IMG/VR virus record: IMGVR_UViG_2671181094_000008
Location: 1 to 40,078 of that record
Strand: one strand, 5' to 3'
Origin: a virus
Lineage: Duplodnaviria > Heunggongvirae > Uroviricota > Caudoviricetes
DNA: 40,078 nt
Under the pieces are notes generated by a model. That model worked only from the letters and a program-made list of their open reading frames with translations, did not search any database and was not told where the DNA came from. The position numbers were made by a program, and so were the translations under genes. This document shows, piece by piece, positions 22,930 to 40,078 of this stretch. Each line of letters opens with the position of its first letter. Within the stretch, counting starts at the first letter, position 1.

Positions 22930-23004
22930 TGGAGCATCTGGCGGGGATCGAACCCGCATTTTCTGGTTGGAAGCCAGATGTAATTACCAAACTACGACAG
23001 ATGC
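22930..23004 (-). tRNA. Phage-encoded tRNA, anticodon UCC by manual folding (tRNA-Gly-like)
   Basis: 75-nt cloverleaf: acceptor GCATCTG/CAGATGC, D-loop with GG, anticodon stem TCTGG/CCAGA, loop CTTCCAA, T-arm GCGGG-TTCGATC-CCCGC, discriminator T and encoded CCA. Confidence 0.7.
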
Positions 23005-27657: not shown

Positions 27658-27947
27658 GCTGATGTTCTCCCGTAAACAGCCAGTACCCGTTTCATCGCCG
27701 GGCTTTGCCGACACTCGTTGAAAATCTGATTGGTGCTCTTCCTGCCTGAAATTTCTTCTTCAGTGGCCAGCCGGTAGTAAACCGTCCGCCACACCCGAGC
27801 TTCCGCTACCAGTACCCCCTGCTTTGCCAGGATATTGGCAGCCTGGTTGATGCAGGTATGCGTCATCCCGGAAGCCGCGGCGACATCTGGAGAGCTGCAG
27901 GTTTTATGCGTTTTCAGGTAGTTCAGAATTGCGTCTTTTCCTGTCAT
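27654..27947 (-). CDS. Hypothetical protein, possible winged-helix DNA-binding
   Basis: 97 aa, overlaps both neighbours. Confidence 0.35.
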   Translation of the reverse strand: MTGKDAILNYLKTHKTCSSPDVAAASGMTHTCINQAANILAKQGVLVAEARVWRTVYYRLATEEEISGRKSTNQIFNECRQSPAMKRVLAVYGRTSA

Positions 27948-28795
27948 GACCGGTTCTCCCGATAGCTGTCCCAGGTAAACGAAATCGTGCAGCCGCCGCC
28001 GTCGTTCATGCGGTCGATGACGCGCTCGCCGATAAACTGCGTCAGCTCATCCTTCGGCAGGTTGCTGATCAGGATCGTCGGCTTCAGGCGCTCGTAGCGG
28101 GTGTTGATGATTTCAAACATGATCATCTTCTCGGCTTCGCTGCCAAACTGCACACCAACCTCATCGACAATCAGAAGGTCTGGCTTCGTGAAGTAGCGGA
28201 TCACCTCATCCTCAGTGCGCGTGGCTGTTTTTGACCAGGTCGATTTAAACTCCCGGGCAATCTTCAGCGCCGTCGTGAAAATGACTGAGCTTTGGTGGTG
28301 CTCAATCACATGACGGGCAATGGCCAGCGCAAGGTGGTTTTTACCGGTACCAGGCTTGCCACACATAACCAACCCACCGCCCTGCTGGAGGCGATCAGTC
28401 CATTTCGATGCGTAGGCCTGGCAGACCCGTAATGCTCGCTCAGAATCCTTCCCAACAGGCTTGTAGCTGTCCAGAGTGCACGTGGAGAATCGCTCTGGTA
28501 TGTCCAGCTGGCGAAGCAGCCTTTCTGCAGTTTGCTGGCGAACTCGCTTATCCCAGCGAACCTTTTCATCCTTCAGAAAATTCAGTTCGTCTTGCAGGCA
28601 GCCCGGGCAGCGTGTCGGCGGTGATGGCAGATTGATGATGCTGCTGGTCAGGATCCGCTTACGCTGCTCATACTCGCCATGCTTTTCGCAACAGACGCGC
28701 TCGATAACCACCTCGCAATTCGGGATGTCTTCCGGTGGCTTACTCAGCTGATCAAGCATCCGCTCAATGGCAGTGATTTTTTCTTCCAGTTCCAT
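27944..28795 (-). CDS. DnaC-like replicative helicase loader (IstB-like AAA+ ATPase)
   Basis: Walker A GKPGTGKNHLA and Walker B LLIVDEVG; directly downstream of the O-like initiator. Confidence 0.8.
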   Translation of the reverse strand: MELEEKITAIERMLDQLSKPPEDIPNCEVVIERVCCEKHGEYEQRKRILTSSIINLPSPPTRCPGCLQDELNFLKDEKVRWDKRVRQQTAERLLRQLDIPERFSTCTLDSYKPVGKDSERALRVCQAYASKWTDRLQQGGGLVMCGKPGTGKNHLALAIARHVIEHHQSSVIFTTALKIAREFKSTWSKTATRTEDEVIRYFTKPDLLIVDEVGVQFGSEAEKMIMFEIINTRYERLKPTILISNLPKDELTQFIGERVIDRMNDGGGCTISFTWDSYRENRS

Positions 28796-28797
28796 GA

Positions 28798-29652
28798 TCA
28801 GTCCCTCGCCCATGATGGGATTTCAGTCTGCCCGTAATCCTTCCCTGAGAAATTTTCGGCAACTCGCACCTGTTGACTTGGTTGAGGCTTGGCACCATTT
28901 GGCTCAAACAGGCCTTGCCAGCCATTGGCGATGCTGCGGTTGATAATTTCTTCGGGCGAGTAACCGTTCAGTCTGCAGCGGTCCAGCAGGTTGATAGCCT
29001 GGGTGACCGTCTGCTGAGACTTGATCGGCTTTTTCAGGTCGCGACGATATGCCACCCATGACGACCAGATTTCTGCAGAAAGCCAGTCAGGCAACTGAAC
29101 AGCTAACGCATCGAACGAAACCGCCCGGGGGGATTTAGGGGGGTTATTAATATTGTCTTTATTGTCTTTTGTATGTTTGTCTTTTGTGTTTACCTGATTC
29201 GGGTAATAGGCGTTACCTGATTCGGGTAAACTTTTCTTACCTGATTCGGGTAATGTTACCTTTTTCAGGTAAGGTTTTTTTTCTTTACCTTTTACGGGTA
29301 AAGATGACCATTCGCTGACCGTTTTATTAATCCCGATAACACGACCGGTTTGAGTTAATATCCCCCGCTTAACCAGGACGCTTTTTGCAGCTGAGCACTT
29401 ATGCGGGAGAATGCCGGTCAGCTCCGAGAGCTGCTCGTTACTGACCCAGTCAGATTTCTTGTTGAAGCCGTATGTTTTGCGCATGACAGCCATGAACACC
29501 AAAAGCTGATGCTGCGACAGACCCGCACGCATGACAGCTTCAAGGAGCTCATTGGCGATGCGCGTAAACCCATCGTCGAGATCTGCCACGCGCAGCTCCT
29601 GTAGTGCCACGACAGGCACAGGGAAATTGATTACCTCGGCAGTATTTGCCAT
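28798..29652 (-). CDS. Replication initiator, lambda O-like
   Basis: Position after cII, an internal iteron array with a K/D/N-rich linker in the reading frame, followed by the helicase-loader gene. Confidence 0.75.
   Translation of the reverse strand: MANTAEVINFPVPVVALQELRVADLDDGFTRIANELLEAVMRAGLSQHQLLVFMAVMRKTYGFNKKSDWVSNEQLSELTGILPHKCSAAKSVLVKRGILTQTGRVIGINKTVSEWSSLPVKGKEKKPYLKKVTLPESGKKSLPESGNAYYPNQVNTKDKHTKDNKDNINNPPKSPRAVSFDALAVQLPDWLSAEIWSSWVAYRRDLKKPIKSQQTVTQAINLLDRCRLNGYSPEEIINRSIANGWQGLFEPNGAKPQPSQQVRVAENFSGKDYGQTEIPSWARD
29144..29302. repeat. Replication origin: five iterons plus adjacent AT-rich tract inside the O-like gene
   Basis: Iterons TACCTGATTCGGGTAA at 29191..29206, 29214..29229, 29238..29253, with degenerate copies TACCTTTTTCAGGTAA (29257..29272) and TACCTTTTACGGGTAA (about 29287..29302); each is an internal palindrome TACC-N8-GGTA. 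AT-rich tract at 29144..29190. Confidence 0.75.
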
Positions 29653-29737
29653 AATTACTCCTGTGAATTGATCCAGTTAATTCGCGTAGAAAGCCGTTAG
29701 TGTTGCTGCACTGCGGCTTTCGCCTTTCTGTTCCCAC

Positions 29738-29959
29738 TCATGCTTCAAAATCACCTTTCTCTCCCGGCCTGTTAGAAATCAGGATGGCCAGCAGCAGCGA
29801 CATGTTCGGCAGCAGACTTTCCCGCCAGCGACTCACCGTCGACTTATTCACTCCGGCCACTTTGGCGATATTCGTGGTTCCCAGTTCAGCTATCTGGCTG
29901 TGTAACCAGCTTTCTATCCTGCGAGCCTCCACTTTGTTGCGTGTCGTTGAACTCTCCAT
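29738..29959 (-). CDS. CII-like transcriptional activator
   Basis: 73 aa, similar to lambda CII as I recall it (RIESWLHSQIAELGT...STVSRWRESLLP..MSLLLAIL); sits between cro and O. Confidence 0.65.
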   Translation of the reverse strand: MESSTTRNKVEARRIESWLHSQIAELGTTNIAKVAGVNKSTVSRWRESLLPNMSLLLAILISNRPGEKGDFEA

Positions 29960-29999
29960 TTGTGATACTTCCTCTGGTGTTGTTTGGAATGGCCGCTGG

Positions 30000-30227
30000 T
30001 TAGGCGGCCGGTGAATGCGCGCTCAGCAACTGAGCAAGGTCAGGCCTGATCTCTGCCGCCTTAATCTTGCCGTTGGTCGCAGACACGATTTTCATTACAT
30101 AGCGAGCGTCAATTCCGCCGCCATGCAGCCAGCGCCAAACTGTCGGCTGCGCTACGCCACACAGATCGGCCAATTTTTTCTGACTGCCAGCGATATCAAT
30201 TGCCTTCTGGATGGTTTTGTTCGTCAT
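30000..30227 (-). CDS. Cro-like HTH repressor
   Basis: Start MTNKTIQKAID preceded by AGGAA; first gene of the rightward operon, divergent from cI. Confidence 0.6.
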   Translation of the reverse strand: MTNKTIQKAIDIAGSQKKLADLCGVAQPTVWRWLHGGGIDARYVMKIVSATNGKIKAAEIRPDLAQLLSAHSPAA

Positions 30228-30259
30228 GTTCCAATTCCTATAAGTATTGGTGCAAAATG

Positions 30260-30288
30260 ATAATAGCAATGCGTATTGGTTTTAGCAA
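30260..30288 (-). promoter_or_regulatory. PR-like early promoter with embedded operator
   Basis: Minus strand TTGCTA, 17-nt spacer, TATTAT; operator palindrome CAATGCGTATTG (30267..30278) in the spacer. Confidence 0.55.
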
Positions 30289-30302
30289 TAGCAAAACGTG
30301 TT

Positions 30303-30330
30303 TTGACCAGTAATACGCAAGCGTATAAAT
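30303..30330 (+). promoter_or_regulatory. PRM-like promoter for cI with overlapping operator
   Basis: TTGACC, 15-16-nt spacer, TATAAA(T); near-palindrome ATACGCAAGCGTAT (30313..30326) in the spacer; transcript would be almost leaderless. Confidence 0.45.
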
Positions 30331-30338
30331 TTGAGATT

Positions 30339-31037
30339 ATGAAAAAAGAAACTCTTGCAGATCGTTTAAACGAGGCCATGGCTTCGGCTGGAATGTCACA
30401 AGGGGCGCTTGCGAAGGCCTCAGGTATTGCTCAGCCAACCATTTGGCGCCTGGTGAGTGGAAACGCCAGGGGTTCAACAAAAATTGTCGAGATAGCTAAT
30501 GCTTTGGGCGTCAGGTCTGAATGGTTATCAACCGGAAATGGACCGATGCGCGATGACGGCCAGCTCCCTCGCGCTGCCCAGGTTAAAAGCCAGGATACTG
30601 ATGCATTCAGGATTGATGTGCTGGACCTTATGGTTAGTGCCGGGCCGGGCATCGTGAACCAGGAGTTCGTCGAGATTCTCCGTTCTGTTGAGTATGAGCC
30701 AGCTGAAGCCCGGCACATGTTCGATGGGCGTAAGGCTGAGAACATCCGGATCATCAACGTCCGGGGCGACAGCATGTCTGGGACGATTGAGCCGGGTGAT
30801 CTGCTGTTCGTCGACATCAGCGTTAAGAGCTTCGACGGCGACGGGATATACGCCTTCCTGTACGACGACACTGCTCACGTCAAGCGCCTGCAGAAGATGA
30901 AGGATAAGCTGCTGGTTATCTCAGATAACAAGAGCTATGCCCCTTGGGAACCGATCGAGAAAGATGAGATGAATCGGGTGTTCGTGTTCGGCAAGGTGAT
31001 CGGCAGCATGCCGCAGACGTACAGGAAGCATGGGTAA
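30339..31037 (+). CDS. CI-like repressor (HTH plus S24 LexA-like autopeptidase domain)
   Basis: N-terminal HTH, C-terminal GDSMSG (Ser nucleophile) and VKRL (Lys); divergent from cro. Start MKKETLADRL chosen over the upstream ATG to leave room for the operators. Confidence 0.85.
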   Translation: MKKETLADRLNEAMASAGMSQGALAKASGIAQPTIWRLVSGNARGSTKIVEIANALGVRSEWLSTGNGPMRDDGQLPRAAQVKSQDTDAFRIDVLDLMVSAGPGIVNQEFVEILRSVEYEPAEARHMFDGRKAENIRIINVRGDSMSGTIEPGDLLFVDISVKSFDGDGIYAFLYDDTAHVKRLQKMKDKLLVISDNKSYAPWEPIEKDEMNRVFVFGKVIGSMPQTYRKHG

Positions 31038-33177: not shown

Positions 33178-33289
33178 GGCGCTACCCTTTTTGGCGTTTT
33201 TTTGAGCATAACAGCACAATAGGAAAAAATAAATTCATTTAGCTATCAATGATTTAATAGCAATAGCTATCAAATAATAACAATACGTA

Positions 33290-33318
33290 TTGCTATGGTT
33301 AATACTCATTGCTATTAT
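33290..33318 (+). promoter_or_regulatory. pL-like early-left promoter with OL-type operators
   Basis: TTGCTA, 17-nt spacer, TATTAT (same architecture as PR); perfect palindrome CAATACGTATTG at 33281..33292 overlapping the -35, plus TAGCAATAGC-type repeats upstream. Confidence 0.55.
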
Positions 33319-38818: not shown

Positions 38819-40078
38819 ATGAGTAAAGAATCATACCCAACGGGCGTTGAGAACCACGGAAAGTCACTCCGCATATGGTTCATTTTTAAAGGTAAGCGTG
38901 TCAGGGAAAACCTCGGTGTCCCTGACACCGCTAAAAACAGGAAGGTGGCCGGGGAGCTGAGAACGTCAGTTTGTTTCGCTATCCGCATGGGGACCTTTGA
39001 CTATGCGGCCCAATTTCCCAACTCGCCAAATCTGAAAACTTTCGGCATCGGGAAGAAAGATATCACCGTAAAAGATCTGTCTGAAAAATGGCTTGAGCTT
39101 AAACGGATGGAGATCTGCGCTAATGCCATAAACAGGTATGAATCGGTGGTGAGAAGCATGCTGCCGAGGGTTGGCGCGAATAAGCTGGTTTCGTCTGTGA
39201 CAAGAGAAGAGCTTCTCTATATCAGGAAGGATATGCTGGCGGGGGATAAAGGGTTGAGTGTGGTGACGGTAAACTACTACATGACCACGATCGCGGGTAT
39301 GTTTCAGTTCGCTGTTGATAATGGCTATGTGAGTGAAAACCCGTTTAACGGCATCAAGCCGCTAAAGAGGGCTAGGATAGAACCAGATCCGCTCACACGT
39401 GATGAATTCGTTCGCTTCATTGATGCCTGCAAGCATCAGCAAACGAAAAACCTGTGGTCAATTGCGGTATACACAGGATTACGTCACGGTGAGCTGGTAT
39501 CCCTCGCATGGGAAGACATAGATCTGAAAACTGGAACGATGACCATACGCCGGAATTATACGAAACTCGGTGATTTCACTCTACCAAAAACCGAAGCCGG
39601 TACCGACAGGGTCGTTCACCTGATCAAGCCAGCCATTGACGCTTTGAGGAACCAGGCGGAAATGACCAGGTTAGGCAGGCAGTATCAGGTTGAGGTACAA
39701 CTGCGGGAGTATGGCCGAACGGTCATTCACGACTGTACATTTGTGTTCAATCCTCAGTTGGTTAAAAAAAGTGGCAGCGTAGGTTACCTGTACAAAGCCG
39801 ATTCAGTTGGTGACTCATGGGATGCGGCGCTTAAACGGTCAGGTTTAAGGCACCGCAAGGCGTATCAGTCGAGACACACTTACGCCTGCTGGTCGCTGTC
39901 TGCCGGGGCCAACCCGAGTTTCATTGCCAGCCAGATGGGACACGCCAGCGCCCAGATGGTTTTCAATGTTTACGGCGCCTGGATGGCCGACAGCAGCAGC
40001 GATCAGATTGCTATGTTGAACCAGAAATTATCGGACTTTGCCCCATCCATGCCCCATGGCATGGCGATAGGAATATGA
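38819..40078 (+). CDS. Tyrosine site-specific integrase
   Basis: 419 aa with C-terminal catalytic-domain segments (...RHTYACWSLSAGANPSFIASQMGHASAQMVFNVYGAWM); the stop coincides with the window end, so attL is outside the window. Confidence 0.9.
   Translation: MSKESYPTGVENHGKSLRIWFIFKGKRVRENLGVPDTAKNRKVAGELRTSVCFAIRMGTFDYAAQFPNSPNLKTFGIGKKDITVKDLSEKWLELKRMEICANAINRYESVVRSMLPRVGANKLVSSVTREELLYIRKDMLAGDKGLSVVTVNYYMTTIAGMFQFAVDNGYVSENPFNGIKPLKRARIEPDPLTRDEFVRFIDACKHQQTKNLWSIAVYTGLRHGELVSLAWEDIDLKTGTMTIRRNYTKLGDFTLPKTEAGTDRVVHLIKPAIDALRNQAEMTRLGRQYQVEVQLREYGRTVIHDCTFVFNPQLVKKSGSVGYLYKADSVGDSWDAALKRSGLRHRKAYQSRHTYACWSLSAGANPSFIASQMGHASAQMVFNVYGAWMADSSSDQIAMLNQKLSDFAPSMPHGMAIGI

Follow-up and report, generated by a model that had tools for sequence, protein, structure and literature searches.

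A theta replication origin of a lambdoid prophage, built like ori-lambda, very probably (about nine chances in ten) lies inside the linker-coding part of an O-like initiator gene in the DNA analysed here, a stretch of 40,078 nucleotides referred to below as the window. The anatomy of this element, the homology and geometry that it shares with proven origins and its conservation at the DNA level can be read directly from the sequences compared. Judged on these, it is an ordinary lambdoid ori with a distinct class of iterons, paired with a DnaC-type helicase loader and plainly homologous to ori-lambda and to the ori of P22. Its mechanism is expected to follow the lambda model, from initiator binding and DNA unwinding to loader recruitment and origin firing.

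The initiator gene, its operon and the origin

The locus is where a lambdoid (Klebsiella-type) prophage has its immunity and replication genes. The gene order is cI / cro - cII - O - DnaC-like loader - ren, and the same cro-cII-O-loader-ren operon occurs in lambda (PMC3349717). The genes of the region are the following.

cI gene, plus strand: S24-peptidase repressor, divergent from the cro-like gene
30000-30227, minus strand: cro-like gene, upstream of O in the same operon
29738-29959, minus strand: cII-like gene, upstream of O in the same operon
28798-29652, minus strand: O-like replication initiator gene, 284 aa, with Phage_rep_O and PHROG matches
27944-28813, minus strand: DnaC/IstB-like AAA+ helicase-loader gene, overlapping the O stop codon
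27654-27947: Ren-like gene, downstream of the loader gene

As expected of a lambdoid ori, a helicase-recruiting partner is encoded immediately downstream of the initiator, in the early operon after cro and cII; the class of the partner differs from lambda P. The DnaC-like loader, whose start is placed 18 nt further in by one RefSeq record, is presumed to be the partner recruited by the C-terminus of O. The early region (~22.7-40 kb) is closest to the Klebsiella phages 6 LV-2017, GZ7 and RCIP0034/0098, and a prophage of E. coli W21 carries a gene 99.8% identical to O. In the W21 prophage (locus L001, 2295-2558), a nin-region homologue of 'DNA polymerase III subunit theta' is annotated, with the near-identical replicon alongside. 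Similarity to the early region of GZ7 ends at a tRNA-Gly gene (anticodon TCC; 22930-23004, minus strand), which is presumably phage-borne and near the Q/late-gene junction.

Residues 21-115 of the initiator match the Pfam domain Phage_rep_O (E 4e-36). The whole protein matches the PHROG family 'replication initiation O-like' (E 6e-90), with a separate C-terminal match over residues 156-283, and a PDB sequence search with the initiator gave no match at E <= 0.1. The origin occupies nucleotides 352-509 of the gene (codons 118-170), in the Lys/Asn/Pro-rich linker between the N- and C-terminal domains, which is where a lambdoid ori is located. The sequence-only reading had placed the origin wholly inside the initiator reading frame, and the minus-strand Phage_rep_O frame at 28798-29652 agrees with it.

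The array spans 29190-29301 and consists of five iterons, listed here in plus-strand coordinates, with centres counted from the AT-block anchor described in the next section.

29285-29301: iteron 1 (distal), coding strand TTACCCGTAAAAGGTAA; centre -104; extra to the four of lambda
29256-29272: iteron 2, coding strand TTACCTGAAAAAGGTAA; centre -75; positional match to lambda ITN1 (-76.5)
29237-29253: iteron 3, coding strand TTACCCGAATCAGGTAA; centre -56; positional match to lambda ITN2 (-56.5)
29213-29229: iteron 4, TTACCCGAATCAGGTAA; centre -32; positional match to lambda ITN3 (-32.5)
29190-29206: iteron 5, TTACCCGAATCAGGTAA; centre -9; abuts the AT-rich tract; positional match to lambda ITN4 (-9.5)

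Each unit is a 17-bp palindrome with the consensus TTACC(C/T)GAATC(A/G)GGTAA. A scan of the whole 40-kb window with TTACC-N7-GGTAA returned these five matches, against 0.01 expected, and 0 elsewhere; a relaxed scan allowing up to 3 mismatches to TTACCTGATTCGGGTAA found nothing beyond them in the same 40 kb. The five palindromic repeats first noticed from the sequence alone are therefore real, and so are the three perfect copies, iterons 3-5, all of which read TTACCTGATTCGGGTAA. Two details of that description did not hold. The spacer is N7 and not N8, the literal pattern TACC-N8-GGTAA having 0 matches in the window, and the repeats are not evenly spaced, with start-to-start distances of 23, 24, 19 and 29 bp (mean phasing ~24 bp). 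A lambdoid ori contains four or more inverted-repeat iterons, ~15-19 bp long and about two helical turns apart, and the five found here fit this.

Two further elements adjoin the array.

29144-29189, minus strand: AT-rich tract, presumed DNA-unwinding element, 46 bp, coding strand ACACAAAAGACAAACATACAAAAGACAATAAAGACAATATTAATAA
29121-29143, minus strand: C-run block, coding strand CCCCCCTAAATCCCCCCGGGCGG, directly after the AT tract

Since the O gene lies on the minus strand, the order along transcription is iterons and then AT tract, as in lambda. In lambdoid origins, the last iteron is followed at once, along O transcription, by an AT-rich tract that melts easily. The coding strand of the tract has the composition A30 T6 G3 C7 and is strongly strand-asymmetric; its G+C content is 24% (27.5% in a windowed count), with 10 of 46 bases by direct count. 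By nearest-neighbour stability, no other 46-bp stretch of the replication module is weaker (rank 1 of 1970 positions, 27944-29959): it scores -50.3 kcal/mol, ~3 sd below the window mean of -64.9 (sd 4.6). Stretches that are less stable and more AT-rich occur in the window at 397-1142 and 33220-33318, and these look like low-G+C accessory or intergenic DNA. The sequence-only reading had also reported repeats in the AT-rich tract beside the iterons, and TTGTCTTT indeed occurs there three times, twice as TTGTCTTTT and once as TTGTCTTTA.

The C-run block is conserved, in varying form, among non-lambda relatives including those of P22 type, and is missing from lambda and from phage Lambda_4C10. The block may be a Pro-rich codon run of the linker, a boundary of the ori, or both. 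In two relatives (L004 and L005), changes of C-run length in CCCCCCTAAATCCCCCC break the O frame and leave truncated ORFs of 182 and 187 aa. In another (L072), the A run between iterons 1 and 2 is one base shorter, which breaks the frame and leaves an ORF of 128 aa. These breaks may be sequencing errors or real frameshifts.

An oop-like antisense RNA is likely encoded on the plus strand of the cII-O interval (29627-29742). The candidate comprises a sigma-70-like promoter, TTGATT-17-CATAAT with a TG, at 29627-29655, then 81 nt that fold into two hairpins (-29.2 kcal/mol, z = -5.2), and a T-rich tail that runs into the 3' end of cII. Its 5' region resembles the conserved pO/oop block of lambda, and it has no Rfam match. 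An Rfam search at gathering thresholds found only a tRNA; hence no curated RNA family lies at or near the ori.

Homology with characterised origins

In lambda, the functional origin consists of iterons plus an AT-rich tract lying centrally in O, as it also does in Stx phages (PMC7466680; PMC3349717). The ori of lambda occupies bases 39034-39160 (PMC3349717), inside gene O and right after the N-terminal domain, and the window has the same placement. The array starts at gene nucleotide 352 in the window and at 349 in lambda O, in both cases 3-4 codons past the SEW motif that ends the N-terminal domain. The lambda record annotates four O-binding iterons (39034-39118), the last of which abuts a ACACAAAAGACA...ACAAAAGA block that opens the AT-rich region. 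The same block follows the iterons in the window, in the P22-type phage BTP1 and in Providencia phage PSTNGR2lys, and the first ~28 nt of the AT tract of the window are homologous to the start of the lambda AT-rich region. Measured from the first base of this block, the iteron centres are as follows.

Window: -104, -75, -56, -32, -9
Phage Lambda_4C10: -104, -75, -56, -32, -9
Lambda (annotated iterons): -76.5, -56.5, -32.5, -9.5
BTP1 (P22-type): -76.5, -56, -32, -9

The four block-proximal iterons of the window lie within 1.5 bp of the annotated centres of lambda, and are thus positional homologues of lambda ITN1-4. Even an irregularity is common to both, the -75 site being 5 bp off the regular 24-bp lattice to which the -104 site returns. 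The claim of a lambda ori arrangement is in this way upheld as sequence homology, by the placement after the SEW motif, the shared AT block and the iteron centres within 1.5 bp.

The differences from lambda are also clear. The lambda iteron, ATCCCTCAAAACGAGGGA, is an 18-bp palindrome (TCCCTC...GAGGGA), whereas the window has the 17-bp TTACC-N7-GGTAA, and there are four iterons in lambda against five in the window. The N-terminal domains of the two initiators are 47% identical. The C-terminus of lambda O is of another kind and its partner is P instead of a DnaC-like AAA+ loader, and a different sequence stands to the right of the AT tract where the window has its C-run block.

Among classical initiators, the closest is that of the P22/BTP1 type (Lederbergvirus, with the ori in gene 18), at 59% N-terminal identity. 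The TTACC/GGTAA arms, the AT block, the iteron centres and a similar C-run block are all shared with the window. The P22-type origin has four iterons, however, and these are 15 bp long (TTACC-N5-GGTAA), with half-sites 2 bp closer than in the window. In P22 the layout is likewise a functional origin, with four repeats of ~20 bp peculiar to gene 18, and the initiator is partnered by a DnaB-type helicase (gp12) where the window has a DnaC-like loader (PMC8022706). With its 17-bp (N7) iterons and DnaC-like partner, the window ori is related to the P22 class and is not a member of it.

The Stx phages 933W and P27 carry six iterons, with extra distal ones beyond a core of four, like the distal site of the window (PMC7466680); the extra distal iterons are bound weakly (PMC7466680). 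Copy number in these phages is polymorphic within one replicon type, and it ranges from 4 to 7 among the relatives of the window. Unlike the window, the Stx phages have iteron sequences of lambda type with O and P. A similar layout is found in phi80 (NC_021190), where four palindromic binding sites for gp15 are annotated in the middle of the O-like gene 15; its iteron is TTCCCGAAAACGGGAA, its N-terminal identity to the window is 39.5% and the ACACAAAAGACA anchor is absent. Five repeats may also be present in the ori of phage 82. A full-text search for the iteron string of the window found no paper in the library searched.

Possible activity, conservation and alternative readings

Several related replicons bear on the activity of this origin. 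O/ori replicons 98-99% identical to that of the window occur in phages isolated as particles (Klebsiella GZ7, RCIP0034/0098 and 6 LV-2017). A circular K. pneumoniae 'plasmid' record of 42,055 bp (NZ_CP146029.1, L099) is a whole phage genome with a window-type replicon. Together, the isolated phages and the circular record with a near-identical replicon are circumstantial support for origin activity. A linear K. pneumoniae 'plasmid' record of 4,627 bp (NZ_CP080357.1, L098) contains only cI-cro-cII-O-loader-ren, and may reflect origin-centred over-replication or an assembly artefact.

These replicons weigh against the best-surviving alternative, by which the repeats are true initiator-binding sites in a silent relic (the prophage being defective or using another origin) and the array serves only as a titration or incompatibility element. 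When cloned together with oop, lambda iterons do inhibit replication of incoming phages that share their replicon type (PMC3349717), and the window covers less than the whole prophage. However, O and the loader gene are both intact, O having the length (284 aa) met most often in relatives; no second iteron cluster was found in the 40 kb by pattern and mismatch scans, and near-identical replicons are those of particle-isolated phages and of the circular 42-kb record. A silent relic is accordingly unlikely, and a probably functional origin is the preferred reading.

Conservation of the array was followed in 80 IMG/VR loci with an N-terminal domain at least 90% identical to that of the window. 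The array is kept in all 80. Among the 64 distinct sequences of this set, the share of columns that vary and, after it, the mean minor-allele frequency were as follows for each site class.

Iteron arms: 14%, 0.005
Iteron centres: 43%, 0.026
Inter-iteron spacers: 74%, 0.068
N-terminal domain, codon position 3: 48%, 0.041
N-terminal domain, codon positions 1+2: about 20%, 0.016

Within the first 560 nt of the initiator gene, no site class is under tighter constraint in these 64 sequences than the iteron arms. The arms vary less than codon positions 1+2 of the N-terminal domain, and variability peaks in the spacers. This pattern counts against the proposal that the repeats are a by-product of a low-complexity, LPESGK-like peptide linker and have no function as DNA. 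The region does encode a Lys/Asn/Pro-rich linker between two domain matches, and two iteron copies translate to LPESG. The coding-strand starts of the five copies, at gene nucleotides 352, 381, 400, 424 and 447, nevertheless fall in two frame phases (0, 2, 0, 0, 2), giving the unrelated peptides LPVKGK, YLKKVT, LPESGK, LPESGN and YPNQVN. The nucleotide repeat is kept while the frame changes, which indicates selection as DNA and not as a peptide repeat. The positions of the copies, within 1.5 bp of the proven O-binding sites of lambda, also argue against a peptide origin, and this proposal is rejected as highly improbable on the frame phases and the conservation by site class.

Hardly more credible are RNA or DNA hairpins acting as pause, termination or translational-attenuation signals within O in place of protein-binding sites, for while every unit is an inverted repeat, the arms are short (5 bp, 7-8 bp at best) and the stems A/T-rich, and the conserved 23-24-bp phasing and the match to protein-binding sites of lambda would be unexpected of such signals. 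A terminator scan of the neighbouring stretch 29550-30400, which lies outside the iteron array, found none and so does not favour hairpin signals. The reading as initiator-binding sites of an origin is retained.

Within the class, the number of iterons varies from 4 to 7. Expansion proceeds by duplication of 24-bp or 48-bp (29+19) units (e.g., L065, L089 and L092), a few relatives reaching seven sites through 24-bp duplications, while the four proximal positions stay fixed. In some relatives, the AT tract contains a 15-bp duplication. Most close relatives have a distal iteron with a single-base deviation (GGTAC), which makes the role of this site uncertain.

The class extends well beyond these relatives. 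In a pattern scan of one genome per species, the last iteron plus the anchor was found in ten species, belonging to Pseudocitrobacter, Kluyvera, Enterobacter (two), Xenorhabdus (two), Arsenophonus, Providencia, Sodalis and Klebsiella. These loci have 4-7 iterons of the window consensus, mostly in the -9/-32/-56/-75 geometry, with N-terminal identities to the window as low as 54%. In the Sodalis locus, the iterons are present and the O reading frame is disrupted. A 201-bp ori segment has matches in 2276 of 5426 complete E. coli genomes (~86% identity, at least 80% coverage), and in the records listed, these fall within genes annotated as replication protein. Both the E. coli counts and the ten-species spread make this a very common class of origin.

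Modular exchange, proposed working and significance

Iterons differ between the lambda, phi80 and P22-type initiators, and in the window class a given N-terminal domain comes with a given iteron type. Escherichia phage Lambda_4C10 has the same iteron class, with five sites at identical spacing (29, 19, 24, 23). Over the N-terminal and ori part, Lambda_4C10 and 4A7 are 81.6% identical to the window at the DNA level. The homology of Lambda_4C10 to the window stops inside the AT tract, and from there onward the phage has a lambda-like O C-terminus and lambda P. It thus keeps both the N-terminal domain and the iteron type despite a C-terminus and a P of lambda type, and such covariation of the Phage_rep_O N-terminal domain with the iterons is another property of lambdoid origins. 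In the phages PhiR47_2, Perceval (Bievrevirus) and Turner, N-terminal identity to the window is 84-85%. In the classical picture of lambda, the N-terminal half of O and the iterons set origin specificity, and the C-terminal half handles the helicase loader. The module joint of Lambda_4C10 fits this division, and the iterons may reasonably be taken to define the replicon specificity of the prophage.

The loader is DnaC-like in 61 of the 80 close relatives and P-like in 19-20, and the P-like proteins share 35-36% identity with lambda P. Phage GZ7, which was included in this search, belongs to the DnaC-like set. The initiator itself changes with the loader type over its last ~30 residues (window 28798-28900). 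A tail ending in ...NGAKPQPSQQVRVAENFSGKDYGQTEIPSWARD goes with the DnaC-like loader and one ending in ...DGQARRSRDAGQEGLHWNSPDAWRDFL with the P-like loader, while the C-terminal core is shared. A switch of the whole C-terminal domain of O with the loader was considered and rejected, as the rest of this domain is at least 83% identical between the two sets. It is tentatively proposed, at somewhat less than even odds, that the N7 iterons and their N-terminal domain form a separate, undescribed specificity class of lambdoid phages across the Enterobacterales, served by DnaC- or P-type loaders through exchange of the last ~30 residues. In the same proposal, the AT block shared by lambda, the P22 type and the window class, and absent from phi80, would act as a recombination joint.

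By analogy with lambda, dimers of the initiator N-terminal domain would bind the 17-bp palindromic iterons. The sites at -9, -32, -56 and -75 would form the core nucleoprotein complex (O-some), with the fifth site at -104 as an accessory. Wrapping of the array is expected to destabilise the adjoining A-rich tract of low stability, and once the DNA is open, the C-terminal part of the initiator would recruit to it the DnaC-like loader together with the DnaB helicase of the host. Transcription of the early, rightward type, from the promoter on the cro side, would cross O and the ori. Lambda P is known for its chaperone-dependent release. As the partner here is a DnaC-like ATPase and not lambda P, the steps after unwinding need not copy those of lambda.

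Built to the plan of ori-lambda, this origin brings no new principle. Its identification locates where replication of the prophage would start and points to the likely replicon type, which helps in annotating the prophage, in foreseeing incompatibility or interference in replication where lambdoid prophages share a host, and in designing vectors of the lambda-dv kind for Klebsiella. Its comparative value is modest and twofold: the iterons keep their geometry relative to the AT block to about 1 bp even where the initiators recognise different sequences, and a single origin module occurs with more than one kind of helicase-loading module.
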